IMG/VR virus record: IMGVR_UViG_2534681662_000012
DNA length: 6,205 nt
From: a virus
Lineage: Duplodnaviria; Heunggongvirae; Uroviricota; Caudoviricetes
Strand: one strand, 5' to 3'
Shown in pieces: positions 1,689 through 6,205 of the stretch; the stretch's first letter is position 1; each line of letters opens with the position of its first letter. Under the pieces are notes generated by a model. The model worked only from the letters and a program-made list of their open reading frames with translations, did not search any database and was not told where the DNA came from. The position numbers and the translations under genes were made by a program.

Positions 1689-1844
1689 TTACTCCTCAGG
1701 TTCGTAAGCTGTGAAGACAGCGACCTCCGTCTGGCCGGTTCGGATTCGTACCTCGCAGAGGTCTTTCCTCGTTACCAGTGCCGTCACTATGACGGTTAAA
1801 CAGATGACGATCAGGGCGATTAACATCGCCTTTTGCTGCTTCAT
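1689..1844 (-). CDS. hokD: Hok/Gef-family type I toxin, HokD/RelF-like (51 aa)
   Basis: The internal ATG (1844..1842) of track ORF 1689..1901 gives MKQQKAMLIALIVICLTVIVTALVTRKDLCEVRIRTGQTEVAVFTAYEPEE. I recognise this as the Hok family (single TM helix, then the conserved RKDLCEV.IRTGQTEVAVF block) and, from memory, as identical or near-identical to E. coli HokD (RelF). SD AAGGAG sits 9 nt upstream. The 19-codon in-frame N-terminal extension in the track ORF was not adopted. Confidence 0.85.
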   Translation of the reverse strand: MKQQKAMLIALIVICLTVIVTALVTRKDLCEVRIRTGQTEVAVFTAYEPEE

Positions 1845-2116
1845 AGCCTGCTTCTCCTTGCCTTTCGGCACGTAAGAGGCTAACCTACATGTGTCTAGCA
1901 TGAAATTGGCCTCAGATTAATGTTAAGCGTCTTGCAGGACGCGTAATGTTAACTGGGGCTTTTCTCTATCTGCCCTTGGTGTTCATGCCCGAGGCAGATA
2001 GCCTCAAGCACCCGCAGCCATTCTACTTAACTACCGTTACCTCGCCAATATGAAATCAGTCAGAAAGACGATCCATAAGAACAATAGCAAGATTTCTTAA
2101 TGGAGATGGATGTAAG

Positions 2117-3604
2117 CTAAATATTTTGGCTCGGTCTGCTTTCTATTAAATGCAACCTGTATTTTAAAGCATGATGTGTCCTAAACTCATTTTGTAGATT
2201 AATTTTTAAGTTAGGCAAACTACTTACGTATTCCCATCTACCTTGTTTTTTTTGTCCGATAAGTGAGTTATCAAACAGGAAGTTGATATATTGACGTATC
2301 ACCCCATCAGAAATACCTGCAAATTCATTACGGCACTTCTCGGAAAAATCATTAAAATCGAATGTTTCTACTTGGATAGTTTGAAGAACAGTTAGTAAGT
2401 TCTCAATTTCAGGGAATTGGTTGGACCATTCATCAATCACCTCATTGTACACACTTATAGATGCTTCACGGTCAGCTTCATAAAGCTCATTGGAAGTGTA
2501 AAGACCTGAGACATTATTTTTATGACATGCCCTAATTTTGTTGAAGTAGACAATAATATCCCTAGGCCTAAAGAAAGAACGGCGACATATATATTTAAAT
2601 GGAGGAGTCCCCTGCCTAACGAATGAAACCTCAAATACTTTCCCAGATCTGTCCTTTTCGTCATCTAATATGAGATCATTAGGTTTGTATTTCTTTATCC
2701 TCTCATAATACATATCGTTTAGATTATTTTCATTCCATGAGATTATGATAGCACTATCTTGCAATAATTTGTTTTTATCATTGAATTTCAAAGAATGATA
2801 AATATCCGTTCGTAGGAAGGGAATGACTTTTAATTTATCATTGAGGCGTTCATCAGATGCTATGTTTCTACAGACATTTAGCAGATTTATTAAAACCTTA
2901 CTATATTCTTCAATTTGCCCCTCTAGCCAGTTTTCGTCTAATTGGTCAAGGGCGATAATTATTTTTTCATTACCAATGTTATCTTTAAAAATTTTTTCAA
3001 AATACGTAAGCAACGTGAAAGCATTAGCTCTTAGCTTTTGCTTTAGCTGAGCATTCTCAGCAACTTCCTCTAACGAAATTTCACCTGCGTCCAATGATAC
3101 TTCATTAAGACCAGCACTGGGCCCTTTTATGGTTTTTAATCTGGTTATTTTTGAAAACAAAACCTCCCTAAGAGTTGGGTCGGGACTACCAAAGATAGTT
3201 TTGATATAATTATGTGCCCACGTTAGATCTTTGTTTAAAGTCTCTCCAGCATCATTTTTTATTTCAATAAGTTTAGATAATGCCTTAATATAAAAAAGAT
3301 ACATCCAACTTTTTTGATAAGCGGAAAGTTCTCCAGCCATTGCATCCTTGTAAAGTTGATGGGCTGGCCATGGATAGTCACTAAAATTTAGACATACTGA
3401 GTAAAACCCGTTGAGATTGGCTGGGTTTCCTCTTCTAAGGTGTTCATAAATGGCTGTTTTACCAGTACCTTTTCTTCCAAGAACCAACCAAGCCCTACTT
3501 TCAATAATATCCTTTATCGCCGGTAGCTTAAAAAAATAGGTCTGTAAGTCCCGATCTGTTTCTGCTGAAACTTGAAATTCTGGTAGCCAGTCTCTAATGT
3601 CCAC
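2117..3604 (-). CDS. P-loop NTPase, 495 aa, STAND/KAP-like motif pattern; AT-rich horizontally acquired gene; candidate phage-defence/abortive-infection protein
   Basis: Track ORF 2117..3604; an uninterrupted 495-codon frame in an otherwise AT-rich segment. Walker A WLVLGRKGTGKTAIYEHL near residue 40; Walker B-like IIALDQLDENW near residue 220 (hhhhD-x-hDE, as in STAND/NACHT-type NTPases; the roughly 175-aa A-to-B spacing is more like KAP-type). In-frame start is GTG at 3604..3602 with SD AAGAGGA about 4-5 nt upstream. G+C in hand-counted 60-bp lines is about 27-35%, against about 57% in a flanking backbone line. Confidence 0.85.
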   Translation of the reverse strand: MDIRDWLPEFQVSAETDRDLQTYFFKLPAIKDIIESRAWLVLGRKGTGKTAIYEHLRRGNPANLNGFYSVCLNFSDYPWPAHQLYKDAMAGELSAYQKSWMYLFYIKALSKLIEIKNDAGETLNKDLTWAHNYIKTIFGSPDPTLREVLFSKITRLKTIKGPSAGLNEVSLDAGEISLEEVAENAQLKQKLRANAFTLLTYFEKIFKDNIGNEKIIIALDQLDENWLEGQIEEYSKVLINLLNVCRNIASDERLNDKLKVIPFLRTDIYHSLKFNDKNKLLQDSAIIISWNENNLNDMYYERIKKYKPNDLILDDEKDRSGKVFEVSFVRQGTPPFKYICRRSFFRPRDIIVYFNKIRACHKNNVSGLYTSNELYEADREASISVYNEVIDEWSNQFPEIENLLTVLQTIQVETFDFNDFSEKCRNEFAGISDGVIRQYINFLFDNSLIGQKKQGRWEYVSSLPNLKINLQNEFRTHHALKYRLHLIESRPSQNI

Positions 3605-3921
3605 ATTTTCCTCTTTACATTACATTACCTTTATGTTTTTCCAAAATAAATCAAAGTCATATGGCGTATCAAGTTTTTTTGATTATTTATGAGCTCATAC
3701 TCAAAAAAATACTAAATCTAATTTATCTTACGTTAACTAAAGATTTCATATGTTAGTATGCTCAAGCAATGCTACTGCTGGAGTCTGATGATATCCGTTA
3801 TACACTAATTGCCACGCACACAAGCGACATCAGTTCATGGCACAAAGCAGACAACCACGCTACCTCTACCCTATGCCATGAAAATGTCAATTTACATCTT
3901 AACTAATGCACTTTAATCTCG

Positions 3922-4344
3922 TCACTTAAATAGATACCGAACATTTCCCTGATAAAACGACAATATGCGCTGCATAACTTCGCTCTTCTGGCACTCGCGA
4001 CAGATTATGTTTAGACGACTGTCGTAGCGACGTATTTCTCCATCAGGTAGTGACCAGATAAGGTCCGGATCAACCACAGCGGGTTTCTTCACCTTCGCCC
4101 TAGAGAGTTTTTTGCGGGCATTTTGCCAGTCCTTTCGTGCCTGTTCAGACGGGAATAACCCGTAGCCGGAGTTGTATACATAACCACTGGCAACCAGCTC
4201 TCTGGCAAGAATGCTCATCAGATATCTTGTCGCACCTGTTTTAGCTTCCAACTGTCGTAATGTCTCGCGACCGCTCTGGCGCACAAGTTCGACCACCTGC
4301 TCTTTAATTTTTTCCCGCTCTTCCTGTGTAAAAACTTTTGCCAC
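3922..4344 (-). CDS. Hypothetical prophage protein, 140 aa
   Basis: Track ORF 3922..4344. GTG start at 4344..4342 with a strong SD AAGGAGG 4 nt upstream (ttAAGGAGGacttGTG on the minus strand). Backbone-like G+C. The product (MAKVFTQEEREKIKEQVVELVRQSGRETLRQLEAKTGATRYLMSILARELVASGYV...) is basic and could contain an HTH, but I do not recognise a specific family. Confidence 0.65.
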   Translation of the reverse strand: MAKVFTQEEREKIKEQVVELVRQSGRETLRQLEAKTGATRYLMSILARELVASGYVYNSGYGLFPSEQARKDWQNARKKLSRAKVKKPAVVDPDLIWSLPDGEIRRYDSRLNIICRECQKSEVMQRILSFYQGNVRYLFK

Positions 4345-4384
4345 AAGTCCTCCTTAAAATTACCTCATGACCTGAAATCAACAC

Positions 4385-5350
4385 TTATCCCCTGAAACCA
4401 GGCGGAATTTCTGTATCCGGTTCAGAAATATGATTCACACAACGCTGTACAGGTGAACGTCCCAAGCGGATGACCAGTTCGTCCCATTTTTCGCGGAGTT
4501 TTGACGGGCTCATGATGTTTTTTACCCAGAATGGATCTCGCTGTACCCGACCAAACATTTCGCAAATTTGTCTGTGGCTTCTGCCATCCAGCATCCGCAT
4601 TGTGCGCACGTCATTGGCCCAGGCTGTCCAGTTAGGCTCTTTTGGTCGCATGATCTCTCCATCGTCGCTGGCAGCCTGTTCGTAAAGGTTCACGATCCGC
4701 CCCCAAATCCACTGCGCACACGCCAAATCCTCCCTGCTACCCCACTGGCGTTTTTTCGCACTAAACACAACCGCGTCGGGGTTCTGGGTTAAAAAATCCT
4801 GTTCAGCGGTCTGCGGGTCCGGTTGCGAAGCTTCCGGACGAAAAGTGTTTTTATTCTCTGTAGTAATCTCTGTTGTATTCTCTGTAAGATCATCAGGCCA
4901 TTTTGACCCGATGACATTGGGTCGTTTTGAACCAATGGAGCGTTTCATTTTGACCTCTTCCATCGTGTCATTTTGACCTGATGGAGCGGCGCATTTTGAA
5001 CCGATGGATTCGTTCAATTTGCCACCATCTAAAAGCTCGCTCCCATAGTTGATCGTGTAGAAATTGGTCATATCGCGCTTTGATTTATTGAGCTTTTCAC
5101 AACGCAAAAGCCCCAGCGTTTTCAGACTTGCAAACGCGCGCTTTAAAGTTGACTCTGACCAGAATGGGAACTGTTCCAGCCATTGTTCCGTTGTGTTGTA
5201 AATCCAGCGAACACCATCACATTCCATGCCGGAATTGGTATCTCTCAACCAGTAATGCAACTGCTGCAACACAATGGCTTCATTTAAGCCAATCTTCATC
5301 GCAAGCTGTGTGTTTATAACCAGTGGGCGTTCAGCAAAAAGAAGGCTCAT
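4385..5350 (-). CDS. Phage replication initiator (lambda O-like / replisome organiser) with an internal origin
   Basis: Track ORF 4385..5404. The track start at 5404 is TTG with no SD, so I prefer ATG at 5350..5348 (weak GGATGG SD), which overlaps the upstream ORF stop by about 20 nt; the start remains uncertain. The N-terminal region looks like a winged-helix DNA-binding domain; the middle is encoded by iteron repeats (repeated SIGSK / VIGSK peptide); the C-terminal domain is Trp-rich. An internal ori is the hallmark of O-type initiators. Confidence 0.7.
   Translation of the reverse strand: MSLLFAERPLVINTQLAMKIGLNEAIVLQQLHYWLRDTNSGMECDGVRWIYNTTEQWLEQFPFWSESTLKRAFASLKTLGLLRCEKLNKSKRDMTNFYTINYGSELLDGGKLNESIGSKCAAPSGQNDTMEEVKMKRSIGSKRPNVIGSKWPDDLTENTTEITTENKNTFRPEASQPDPQTAEQDFLTQNPDAVVFSAKKRQWGSREDLACAQWIWGRIVNLYEQAASDDGEIMRPKEPNWTAWANDVRTMRMLDGRSHRQICEMFGRVQRDPFWVKNIMSPSKLREKWDELVIRLGRSPVQRCVNHISEPDTEIPPGFRG
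4898..5012. repeat. Iteron array (putative prophage origin of replication) inside the initiator gene, with an adjacent A+T-rich short-repeat tract at 4841-4890
   Basis: Five direct repeats of about 18-20 bp with 23-24 bp periodicity. Plus-strand copies start near 4900 (attttgacccgatga), 4924 (gttttgaaccaatgga), 4948 (cattttgacctcttccatcg, degenerate), 4968 (cattttgacctgatggagcg) and 4992 (cattttgaaccgatggattcg); consensus CATTTTGA(C/A)C.GATGGA. Immediately downstream in gene orientation is the tract 4851-4888 with three copies of tctctgt(a/t) (ttattctctgtag, taatctctgtt, tattctctgtaag). Confidence 0.6.
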
Positions 5351-5852
5351 AATTCCATCCAGCTTTTTGTTGGTATTGCTGTCGATACGCAAGTTTGAAA
5401 GCAATTGCTTTTTCTATAAGTTCGTCAGTTTCACGATCCACTACGGCAGGATCAGCAAAAAGCAGTCCGGACTCCACCACATCGCCATATTCTTTGTTTA
5501 ACCCGGCGATCATGTACGTGATGCTTTTTCCGTCACTAATTTCACGATACAACCTGAAATCATTAATCCGGATAGCCTCCATAATTGCAGGCACTAGCGC
5601 CGTGAACTTTTCACGCTTATCCCTAGTGTCGATAGCCTTCCAGCGTTCGAATATCTTCACTCGATTAACGCCAAGCGCTCGCTGATCAACCGCGCCACCT
5701 TCATCTGTGACACGCTGAACATCGATGTTCGGGCGCTCTTTCAAAGCCCAGAATGCTTCAGTGATTAATATCGTCGCCTGCTCCTGTGTCATTCCTGGTC
5801 GACATATCCAGGCATCCAGAGCCTCACGAGCCTGTTCAGGAGTGATTTTCAT
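5331..5852 (-). CDS. Hypothetical prophage early-region protein, 173 aa
   Basis: Track ORF 5331..5852 with ATG start at 5852..5850 and backbone G+C. The product (MKITPEQAREALDAWICRPGMTQEQATILITEAFWALKERPNIDVQRV...) is not recognised by me. Its start lies 37 bp from the IS1 left end. Confidence 0.65.
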   Translation of the reverse strand: MKITPEQAREALDAWICRPGMTQEQATILITEAFWALKERPNIDVQRVTDEGGAVDQRALGVNRVKIFERWKAIDTRDKREKFTALVPAIMEAIRINDFRLYREISDGKSITYMIAGLNKEYGDVVESGLLFADPAVVDRETDELIEKAIAFKLAYRQQYQQKAGWNYEPSFC

Positions 5853-5889
5853 TGTTCAACCGCCCCGCCCGCTTCGTCTTACGATATTC

Positions 5890-5912
5890 GGTGATGCTGC
5901 CAACTTACTGAT
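5890..5912 (+). repeat. IS1 left terminal inverted repeat (about 23 bp)
   Basis: GGTGATGCTGCCAACTTACTGAT at 5890-5912 matches the IS1 terminal inverted repeat as I recall it. The other end and the target-site duplication lie outside the window. Confidence 0.85.
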
Positions 5913-5944
5913 TTAGTGTATGATGGTGTTTTTGAGGTGCTCCA

Positions 5945-6205
5945 GTGGCTTCTGTTTCTATCAGCTGTCCCTCCTGTTCAGCTACTGACGGGGTGGTGCG
6001 TAACGGCAAAAGCACTGCCGGACATCAGCGCTATCTCTGCTCTCACTGCCGTAAAACATGGCAACTGCAGTTCACTTACACCGCTTCTCAACCCGGTACG
6101 CACCAGAAAATCATTGATATGGCCATGAATGGCGTTGGATGCCGGGCAACAGCCCGCATTATGGGCGTTGGCCTCAACACGATTTTACGTCACTTAAAAA
6201 ACTCA
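5945..6205 (+). CDS. insA: IS1 InsA (N-terminal 87 codons; truncated by the window end)
   Basis: Hand translation from GTG at 5945 gives [87 protein letters not shown] with no stop before 6205, matching IS1 InsA (zinc-finger plus HTH). Not in the ORF track, which shows a different-frame ORF at 5916..6128. Confidence 0.9.

Follow-up and report, generated by a model that had tools for sequence, protein, structure and literature searches.

Why does one gene of an Escherichia coli prophage depart so sharply in base composition from the genes around it, and what might it do for its carrier? We addressed this question in a stretch of 6,205 nucleotides (nt) from a Caudoviricetes virus (IMG/VR record IMGVR_UViG_2534681662_000012; hereafter the window), which is part of an E. 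coli lambdoid prophage of the Qin/Rac type and contains a low-G+C island between the toxin gene hokD and the last gene of the replication module. The island is a sharp one-gene piece of foreign, horizontally acquired DNA that is carried as prophage cargo in a recombination-prone slot, a conclusion that we regard as secure. As a compositional island it is ordinary, a textbook AT-rich prophage moron, and its interest lies in the gene, which encodes a member of an uncharacterised ATPase family whose close relatives recur at sites that phages use for exclusion genes. On balance, we favour the reading of this ATPase as a prophage-carried anti-phage protein.

The cassette, its gene and the two genes that flank it are as follows.

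2093..3833 (right edge fuzzy, 3825-3838), no strand: single-gene cargo cassette of 1.74 kb, G+C 0.346, delimited by comparison with prophages carrying other cargo
2117..3604, minus strand: coding sequence (CDS) of 495 amino acids (aa), P-loop/AAA+ ATPase of the Sll1717 family with a C-terminal winged helix
1690..1845, minus strand: hokD toxin CDS (Pfam HOK_GEF, 3e-23; RefSeq annotation in the sister prophage L001)
3922..4344, minus strand: DUF977/Ren-like gene, the last of the replication module (Pfam DUF977, 1.9e-28; phrog_142 'Ren-like exclusion protein', 7e-44)

A one-gene cassette in a variable prophage slot

Computed by segment, G+C was 0.344 at 2020-3790, compared with 0.539 at 1-2019 and 0.477 at 3791-6205, and a 200-nt sliding profile fell from 0.49-0.58 to 0.29-0.41 between approximately 2000 and 3800 and then returned to 0.43-0.55. 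A two-change-point likelihood model placed its maximum-likelihood steps at 2046 and 3966 with a log-likelihood ratio of 77.9, compared with 11.2 on average and 18.7 at most for 50 shuffles of 50-nt blocks. G+C was 0.351 in the ATPase CDS and 0.267 in the upstream tract 3605-3780, and third-position G+C was 0.306 in the ATPase gene, 0.44-0.55 in the DUF977, O-like, YdaT and DUF968 genes and 0.35 in hokD. The initial annotation had described a sharp low-G+C island that is essentially one gene preceded by very AT-rich DNA, and the sliding profile, the single CDS within the cassette and the composition of the upstream tract all bear this description out. Its left edge at 2020 was set approximately 70 bp too far to the left: because homology to prophages with other cargo continues to 2092, bases 2020-2092 lie outside the island and are hokD/sok DNA, from the promoter-proximal side of that conserved locus, and the junction falls at 2092/2093.

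These junctions were read from prophages with near-identical flanks and other cargo, in which homology ends at 2092 and restarts at 3827-3838. In prophage L003, with flanks 95-98.6% identical to the window, homology covers 1595-2092 and 3834-5890, and 1689 bp of unrelated DNA coding for HAD and NUDIX hydrolases replaces 2093-3833; in other slot variants, homology breaks at 2075-2092 and 3827-3838. Of 5426 complete E. coli genomes, 41 contain the full cassette and 652 more match bases 2020-2092 alone; about 3,300 genomes match the right flank, with homology that starts only at approximately 3834. A search for direct or inverted repeats around the cassette (att sites or transposon ends) returned only short AT-rich chance matches and a 10-nt inverted pair at 2048-2057/3742-3751, which is off the junctions.

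On one side of the slot is the replication module (O-like, DUF977/Ren-like) and on the other the hokD/sok-rem-DUF968-RusA-Q module; the gene order in strain 101EVA (L001), whose prophage is integrated beside rspB/ynfA, is cro, ydaT-like, O-like, DUF977, the ATPase gene, hokD, rem, a hypothetical gene, DUF968, RusA and the Q antiterminator. Between DUF977 and hokD we found at least four alternative contents with flanks 90-99% identical. Among them, at flank identities of 95-99%, are HAD and NUDIX hydrolases in L003 and L020; a methyltransferase, a hypothetical protein and a protein with an SMEK domain in L021; and, in L023, IS1 with a hypothetical protein. Upstream of hokD, L022 has a DUF4145 protein, in a compared stretch that does not reach DUF977. 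In K-12 Qin, the genes upstream of hokD are presumably relBE. Within E. coli, the ATPase cassette keeps the DUF977-hokD slot even where the rest of the prophage differs. We did not find this slot described as a hotspot in the literature searched, and its precise junctions would make it convenient for mining candidate genes in thousands of E. coli genomes.

Three of the variants (L003, L021 and L022) contain an additional conserved segment of approximately 70 nt upstream of the hokD promoter region, which in L022 is annotated as a 29-aa hypothetical protein. The window is without this segment, so that on the left the present cassette reaches further into the hokD flank than the cargo of the other variants does.

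The low G+C content is not confined to E. coli. The ATPase gene has 27-41% G+C in every host examined and lies below its own flanks except in three low-G+C hosts, for example 0.34 within Klebsiella DNA of 0.53-0.55 and 0.35 within Serratia DNA of 0.52-0.58. Because the gene is low in G+C across hosts, its AT-richness is a trait of the gene and not an E. coli-specific signature of recent arrival.

The cassette encodes an Sll1717-family ATPase

The 495-aa protein matched the NCBIfam model NF047389 'P-loop ATPase, Sll1717 family' with 250.8 bits (curated cut-off 75), residues 13-484 aligning to model positions 5-454 of 454, and it matched phrog_13260 (function unknown) over its full length with an E-value of 5e-34. 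RefSeq already names the protein (WP_000354584.1) 'P-loop ATPase, Sll1717 family', and the family is named in both NCBIfam and PHROGs, with a name that carries no function. Pfam gave no match at E-values up to 0.01 and noise-level AAA_16 only at E-values up to 10. The ORC-CDC6-like model PF24389 did not match the window protein at E-values up to 10 and stayed below its gathering score of 27 for the homologues P0113 (24.3 bits) and P0114 (23.7 bits). Sequence searches against the Protein Data Bank (PDB), run with the protein alone and with profiles of its close homologues and of 71 diverse members, gave P-loop-level matches only, and the viral structure library BFVD had no match at E-values up to 1e-3.

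To describe conservation, we used a set of 71 family members with 20-55% identity, in which the following elements stand out.

3455..3478, minus strand: Walker A, GRKGTGKT, residues 43-50 (G43, K45, G46, G48 and K49 invariant)
2933..2959, minus strand: Walker B, IIALDQLDE, residues 216-224 (D220 and D223 invariant family-wide; on model strand 214-220)
2558..2569, minus strand: RPRD, residues 346-349, a candidate sensor-2/arginine element by inferred role (P347 and R348 invariant, R346 and D349 at least 90%)
2120..2407, minus strand: C-terminal helical and winged-helix domain, approximately residues 400-495, with the conserved wing GQKKQGRWEY

Further invariant residues are W100, R265, D276, K279, W290, R302 and E392. 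We read nearly all of the invariant residues as ATPase or oligomer-interface positions, and no second catalytic domain was seen.

An AlphaFold2 model built from 38 homologues (mean predicted local distance difference test, pLDDT, 69; predicted template modelling score, pTM, 0.62) consists of a P-loop alpha/beta core followed by a helical region and a C-terminal winged helix. The modelled strands span residues 40-43, 67-73, 214-220, 258-264 and 285-288, and a helical insertion of approximately 130 residues separates strand 2 from Walker B. The Walker A motif and an acidic Walker B motif (LDQLDE, 219-224) are placed on a central beta-sheet, as in AAA+ proteins, and in the model the AAA+ core, helical lid and C-terminal winged helix are superposable on Cdc6/Orc1, which Foldseek independently ranked first (1e-6). 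The winged-helix part gave local structural matches to Fur, MukF, JetA and SmtB. The predicted fold class is accordingly that of the ORC/Cdc6/archaeal-ATPase group, an AAA+ core with a C-terminal winged helix.

Distribution and neighbourhoods of the homologues

Close homologues with 61-72% protein identity and 65-69% nucleotide identity were found in at least seven phyla. They include proteins from Vibrio, Methylophaga, Nitrosomonas, Sulfuricurvum, Arcobacteraceae, Flavobacteriia, Pontibacter, Bdellovibrionaceae and two Patescibacteria, and the protein identity range holds between Gammaproteobacteria, Campylobacterota, Bacteroidota, Bdellovibrionota and Patescibacteria. Protein and nucleotide identities of this order across phyla indicate an old divergence under strong purifying selection, together with wide horizontal transfer, and the ATPase motifs are all invariant across the compared homologues. 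The two Patescibacteria homologues, from metagenome-assembled genomes of the candidate phyla radiation (L036 and L044), are 62-63% identical to the window protein, which is unusually high for a comparison with an E. coli prophage gene.

A scan with the family hidden Markov model (HMM) collected 2,537 clusters at 50% identity, most of which are standalone proteins of 470-520 aa, and the close relatives (61-72%) are always standalone and always AT-rich. Rare longer and more distant members are fused to domains whose Pfam definitions come from conflict systems: a GT4-conflict glycosyltransferase (8e-128), EAD7 (4e-38) or an N-terminal cold-shock domain.

The homologues occupy a variety of mobile and chromosomal positions. 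The Serratia homologue is located in a P2-like prophage between gpA and ogr/portal, that is, at the P2 site between gpA and the portal gene that is a known old/tin defence hotspot (Rousset et al. 2022, PMC9122126). Another P2-like prophage carries the Klebsiella homologue beside tail genes, the Proteus homologue directly follows a prophage integrase, the V. cholerae homologue (L004/L005) has a filamentous prophage (Rep_trans, Zot) on one side and matP/lon on the other, and the homologue in Lactococcus phage CAP follows the lysin gene at the genome end. Only 1 of 50,697 sequenced phage records contains a homologue. On chromosomes, we found homologues in islands with GmrSD, a reverse transcriptase and a DNA methyltransferase; with RhuM, RelB/YafQ, DarTG and SIR2; and with TacAT. 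A survey of 137 neighbours, taken as crude open reading frames (ORFs) from 14 species-representative loci and run without a background control, recovered with PADLOC a type IIG restriction-modification enzyme, Drt2, DarG, SoFic and methyltransferases and with Pfam three integrases.

No constant partner gene recurred over more than 25 loci from many phyla. Two candidates were rejected as lineage-specific: a conserved small upstream ORF (94-97 aa) in V. cholerae, which was not seen in other genera, and a leucine-rich repeat (LRR) gene downstream of the homologue in Tenacibaculum, which is absent elsewhere.

Start codon and upstream region

The start of the ATPase gene and the DNA upstream of it contain the following elements.

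GTG 3604-3602 and ATG 3606-3604, minus strand: start codon and overlapping out-of-frame ATG (sequence and ORF list)
3609..3615, minus strand: Shine-Dalgarno sequence AAGAGGA (read from the sequence; heptamer kept in the Proteus copy)
3605..3746, minus strand: upstream DNA that moves with the gene, presumed promoter region (83% nucleotide identity to the Proteus cassette)
3643..3672, minus strand: promoter-like TTGATA-18-TATTTT, not significant (9 of 12 positions matched; TAGATA/AACTTT in Proteus)

The start codon was GTG in all five E. coli copies inspected, whereas this codon read ATG in all eight homologues from other genera. In Proteus, Klebsiella, Serratia, Vibrio, Enterobacter and Sulfuricurvum, this ATG is followed by D-I/V-K and a tryptophan at residue 6, and M-D-I/V-K is the N-terminus of the Gram-negative copies. 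Homology therefore fixes the position of the in-frame GTG, which had been annotated initially together with the ATG 2 nt upstream. The start context reads AATGTGG in E. coli copies and AATATGG or similar in the others; because the non-E. coli homologues have ATG at this codon, a single A>G substitution created both the GTG start and the overlapping ATG, which opens a 30-codon ORF at 3514-3606. The GAGG core of the Shine-Dalgarno sequence (3613-3610) is separated by 5 nt from GTG and by 3 nt from the overlapping ATG, a spacing that, judged from the sequence, favours GTG. We infer that the change from ATG to GTG in E. coli, with its new overlapping ATG, probably lowers the translation of a dosage-sensitive protein.

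The Proteus cassette is 83% identical over 3746-2106, which comprises the ORF, 142 bp upstream and 11 bp downstream. Because the 142 bp are shared with Proteus, the ATPase gene moves with its own upstream region, and to this extent the expectation that the island has its own expression signals holds. The promoter hexamers do not support it: at 1850-4000, we found 7 promoter-like sites when 7.3 were expected, so that no promoter is callable and the sigma70-like candidates proposed initially are at chance level; moreover, the TTGATA/TATTTT pair is not kept in Proteus, and aligned upstream regions from Proteus, Klebsiella and Serratia contain no conserved -35/-10 pair. No terminator-like site was detected at 1850-4000, and thus no intrinsic terminator lies between the ATPase gene and hokD.

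An AT-rich palindrome, TTTTTTTGAGTATGAGCTCATAAATAATCAAAAAAA, is located at 3674-3709 just upstream of the TTGATA hexamer and is centred on GAGCTC; its folding was no better than that of shuffled sequences (z -0.7), and it is not conserved in Proteus.

State of the gene and of the surrounding prophage

The prophage around the cassette shows several marks of decay. An IS1 end at 5890-6205, 99% identical to IS1A in L023, interrupts a cro-like gene, the equivalent of window 5837-6064 being the cro-like gene of L001, and the IS1/cro-like junction was not found in any complete E. coli genome of the collection. Because this IS1 end would stop read-through from the early promoter, a local promoter would be needed if the ATPase gene is expressed. 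Compared with L001, in which the gene is intact and encodes 349 aa, the DUF968 (ydfU-like) gene has lost 1 nt at each of two points, near 842 and 824; this splits it into overlapping ORFs at 804-1241 and 194-1021 and reflects either a pseudogene or a sequencing error. Relative to the same prophage, approximately 366 bp are missing at 1538-1595, which removes the rem gene, and the ORF at 1243-1650 (135 aa) is a fusion artefact of this deletion.

Despite this decay, the ATPase ORF is unbroken, as it is in the other E. coli copies of its protein cluster (P0001, 96 member sequences), to which it is identical. In two Shiga toxin-producing E. coli (STEC) genomes from raw meat, NZ_CP041433 (STEC313) and NZ_CP041429 (STEC367), the gene is split by an insertion of the IS3 family, and these copies (matches H3, H12 and H26) are annotated as two Sll1717 fragments. 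Truncated proteins also form clusters of 331 aa (P0108) and 365 aa (P0082).

Possible function of the ATPase

We consider it moderately probable that the ATPase is a prophage-carried anti-phage gene that acts in superinfection exclusion or abortive infection. This reading is based on its position, the neighbourhoods of its homologues, the fusions to conflict-system domains, the selection pattern and the intact ORF in a decayed prophage. Several results weigh against it. No effector domain was recognised with Pfam or in the model, and PADLOC-DB v2.0.0 returned only PDC-M28C (E-value 4.1e-5, 20.6 bits, residues 212-304) and no convincing model. The structural model is only moderately confident at its pLDDT of 69, with residues 139-176 and 321-345 poorly modelled. 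Because the gene is disrupted by IS3 in the two STEC genomes, it is dispensable; moreover, no promoter could be called in its upstream region. Conservation to this degree across phyla would be unusual for sensors of fast-evolving phage proteins, and the neighbourhood evidence is descriptive, with many neighbours in species-representative loci being housekeeping genes.

The absence of an effector domain also bears on a different reading, in which the ATPase serves a conflict system as its sensor or switch core, the effector being either unlinked or encoded by the host, or has a different function that benefits the host or the element but does not concern phage, such as plasmid or mobile-element exclusion, addiction or winged-helix regulation. 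EADs are adaptors that recruit effectors to the NTPase cores of NTP-dependent conflict systems (PMC7159879), and relatives of the window protein carry EAD7 adaptors, which act by the homotypic recruitment of separately encoded effectors; in addition, the nearest structural analogues in defence (RdrA, BrxC and Avs) all need partner or effector modules. We nevertheless regard this reading as rather unlikely because an EAD is missing from the window protein itself, the more than 25 loci share no recurrent partner gene, and a gene that spreads alone across phyla should act alone or with a universally conserved host factor.

Its fold and position could instead suggest a prophage replication accessory that cooperates with the O-like and DUF977 genes as an initiator or helicase loader of the ORC/Cdc6 or DnaC kind: the fold is closest to Cdc6/Orc1 initiators, the gene is immediately downstream of the replication module in the same orientation, and in the window the interval from the O-like gene to DUF977 contains no recognisable DnaC/P-like loader. 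This role is improbable and the loader reading was rejected because prophages with 95-99% identical replication modules have unrelated genes or only IS1 in the slot, and because homologues occur in unrelated contexts, including P2-like prophages with their own gpA, sites by integrases or after a lysin gene and defence islands in non-phage parts of chromosomes, those of Patescibacteria included; their rarity among sequenced phage records also argues against it. The composition itself raises the further alternative of inert xenogeneic DNA silenced by H-NS, a hitchhiking relic without current function in E. coli. Such DNA would be expected to have a G+C content well below that of its surroundings, as is the case here (0.344-0.346, compared with 0.48-0.54 in the flanks and about 0.51 in the host), and the AT-rich upstream tract and gene, the weak GTG start, the rarity among E. 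coli genomes and the IS3-disrupted copies are in line with it. H-NS silencing of the island is only an expectation from AT-richness, and the 10-mer TCGATAAATT, the H-NS nucleation consensus, was not enriched, with 10 matches at up to two mismatches when 8.1 were expected. We consider a functionless relic very improbable because the ORF is intact and identical across the P0001 copies even in a decayed prophage and because the identities across phyla reflect long-term purifying selection; furthermore, silencing and function can coexist.

If the ATPase is an anti-phage protein, as we favour, the lysogen would express it from the approximately 140-230 bp of AT-rich DNA that moves with the gene. 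Speculatively, the ATP-bound protein might use its winged helix and the large helical insert of the ATPase core to bind the nucleic acid of an incoming phage or an intermediate in its replication, oligomerise there and block replication initiation or helicase loading; alternatively, it could act as a switch, driven by ATP, for the recruitment of a conserved host factor. The analogues for this scheme are Cdc6/Orc1, DnaA, TnsC, MuB, BrxC and RdrA, and we propose ATP-dependent assembly on phage nucleic acid because the closest folds (Cdc6/Orc1, DnaA, TnsC and MuB) all assemble on DNA in this manner and because the wing is basic and invariant. A more specific version is possible, although we hold it with considerable doubt: the Sll1717-family protein may be a new effector-less, single-protein anti-phage system in which the AAA+/winged-helix ATPase is itself the effector and loads or polymerises in an ATP-dependent manner on incoming phage DNA or its replication origin, thereby blocking replication or helicase loading. 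Were this the case, bacteria would use the fold of eukaryotic and archaeal initiators in immunity, and phages would have carried this use into at least seven phyla, the Patescibacteria among them. If the gene is protective by whatever route, it would represent a compact, portable single-gene system without an obvious effector, and its mechanism would be informative on how AAA+ initiator-like proteins are turned against invading DNA.

Flanking elements

Two structured elements lie in the flanks of the cassette.

1839..2013, minus strand: hok/sok regulatory RNA element of the hokD locus, in the flank (Rfam RF01794, 116.6 bits, E-value 6.9e-27, full model)
3834..3882, minus strand: conserved hairpin of 17-18 bp without a U-tract (inverted repeat I5; z -4.8, 0 of 200 shuffles fold as well)

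The hairpin starts 40 nt past the stop codon of DUF977 and reaches the cassette junction with its 3' end, and it is kept in other Rac/Qin-type prophage backbones; it could be a terminator, a processing site or a recombination breakpoint. On the other side, a promoter-like TTGGCG-17-TAGAAT at 2048-2020 is part of the conserved hokD/sok locus. Just downstream of hokD, at 1599-1680 on the minus strand, there is a weak Rfam match to the Hfq-binding small RNA isrK (27.9 bits, compared with a gathering score of 50; E-value 0.005).

Comparison with known systems

In its predicted fold, the window protein resembles Cdc6/Orc1 and the archaeal ATPases SSO1545 (2fna) and PABY2304 (2qen), with which it shares 8-17% sequence identity and, as with every PDB chain, no HMM-level relation beyond the P-loop. 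It differs from Cdc6/Orc1 in its helical insertion of approximately 130 residues and in being encoded by mobile cargo and not by a chromosomal replication gene.

Among defence ATPases, BrxC (BREX), RdrA (RADAR) and Avs require partners or effectors, namely PglZ/BrxB, the RdrB deaminase and a fused nuclease, SIR2 or TIR domain, respectively, and have sensor repeats, whereas the window protein has 495 aa, stands alone without an effector or repeat domain and matched none of their PADLOC models. The tripartite STAND/Avs architecture (effector, NTPase and TPR, LRR or WD40 repeats) was not found, as Pfam gave no repeat or effector match. A single-gene ATPase system of P4 hotspots, 'Reve' (NAR 2026, PMC13586616), is described as KAP-type; judged by Pfam, the window protein is not of this type, as KAP_NTPase did not match it or two homologues at E-values up to 10. 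We found no paper on 'Sll1717' or WP_000354584 in the literature searched, and the ATPase gene was not found in the DefensePredictor study or in the supplementary material of Rousset 2022 and Vassallo 2022.

In organisation, the gene resembles prophage exclusion genes. The window protein has no sequence relation to Old, Tin, Rex or Ren; however, its gene shares the plan of P2 old/tin/fun, lambda rexAB/ren and the P2/P4 hotspots, in which a single gene or small cassette occupies a fixed, variable slot between conserved phage flanks, and, like those genes, it is AT-rich, patchily distributed and exchanged for unrelated cargo.

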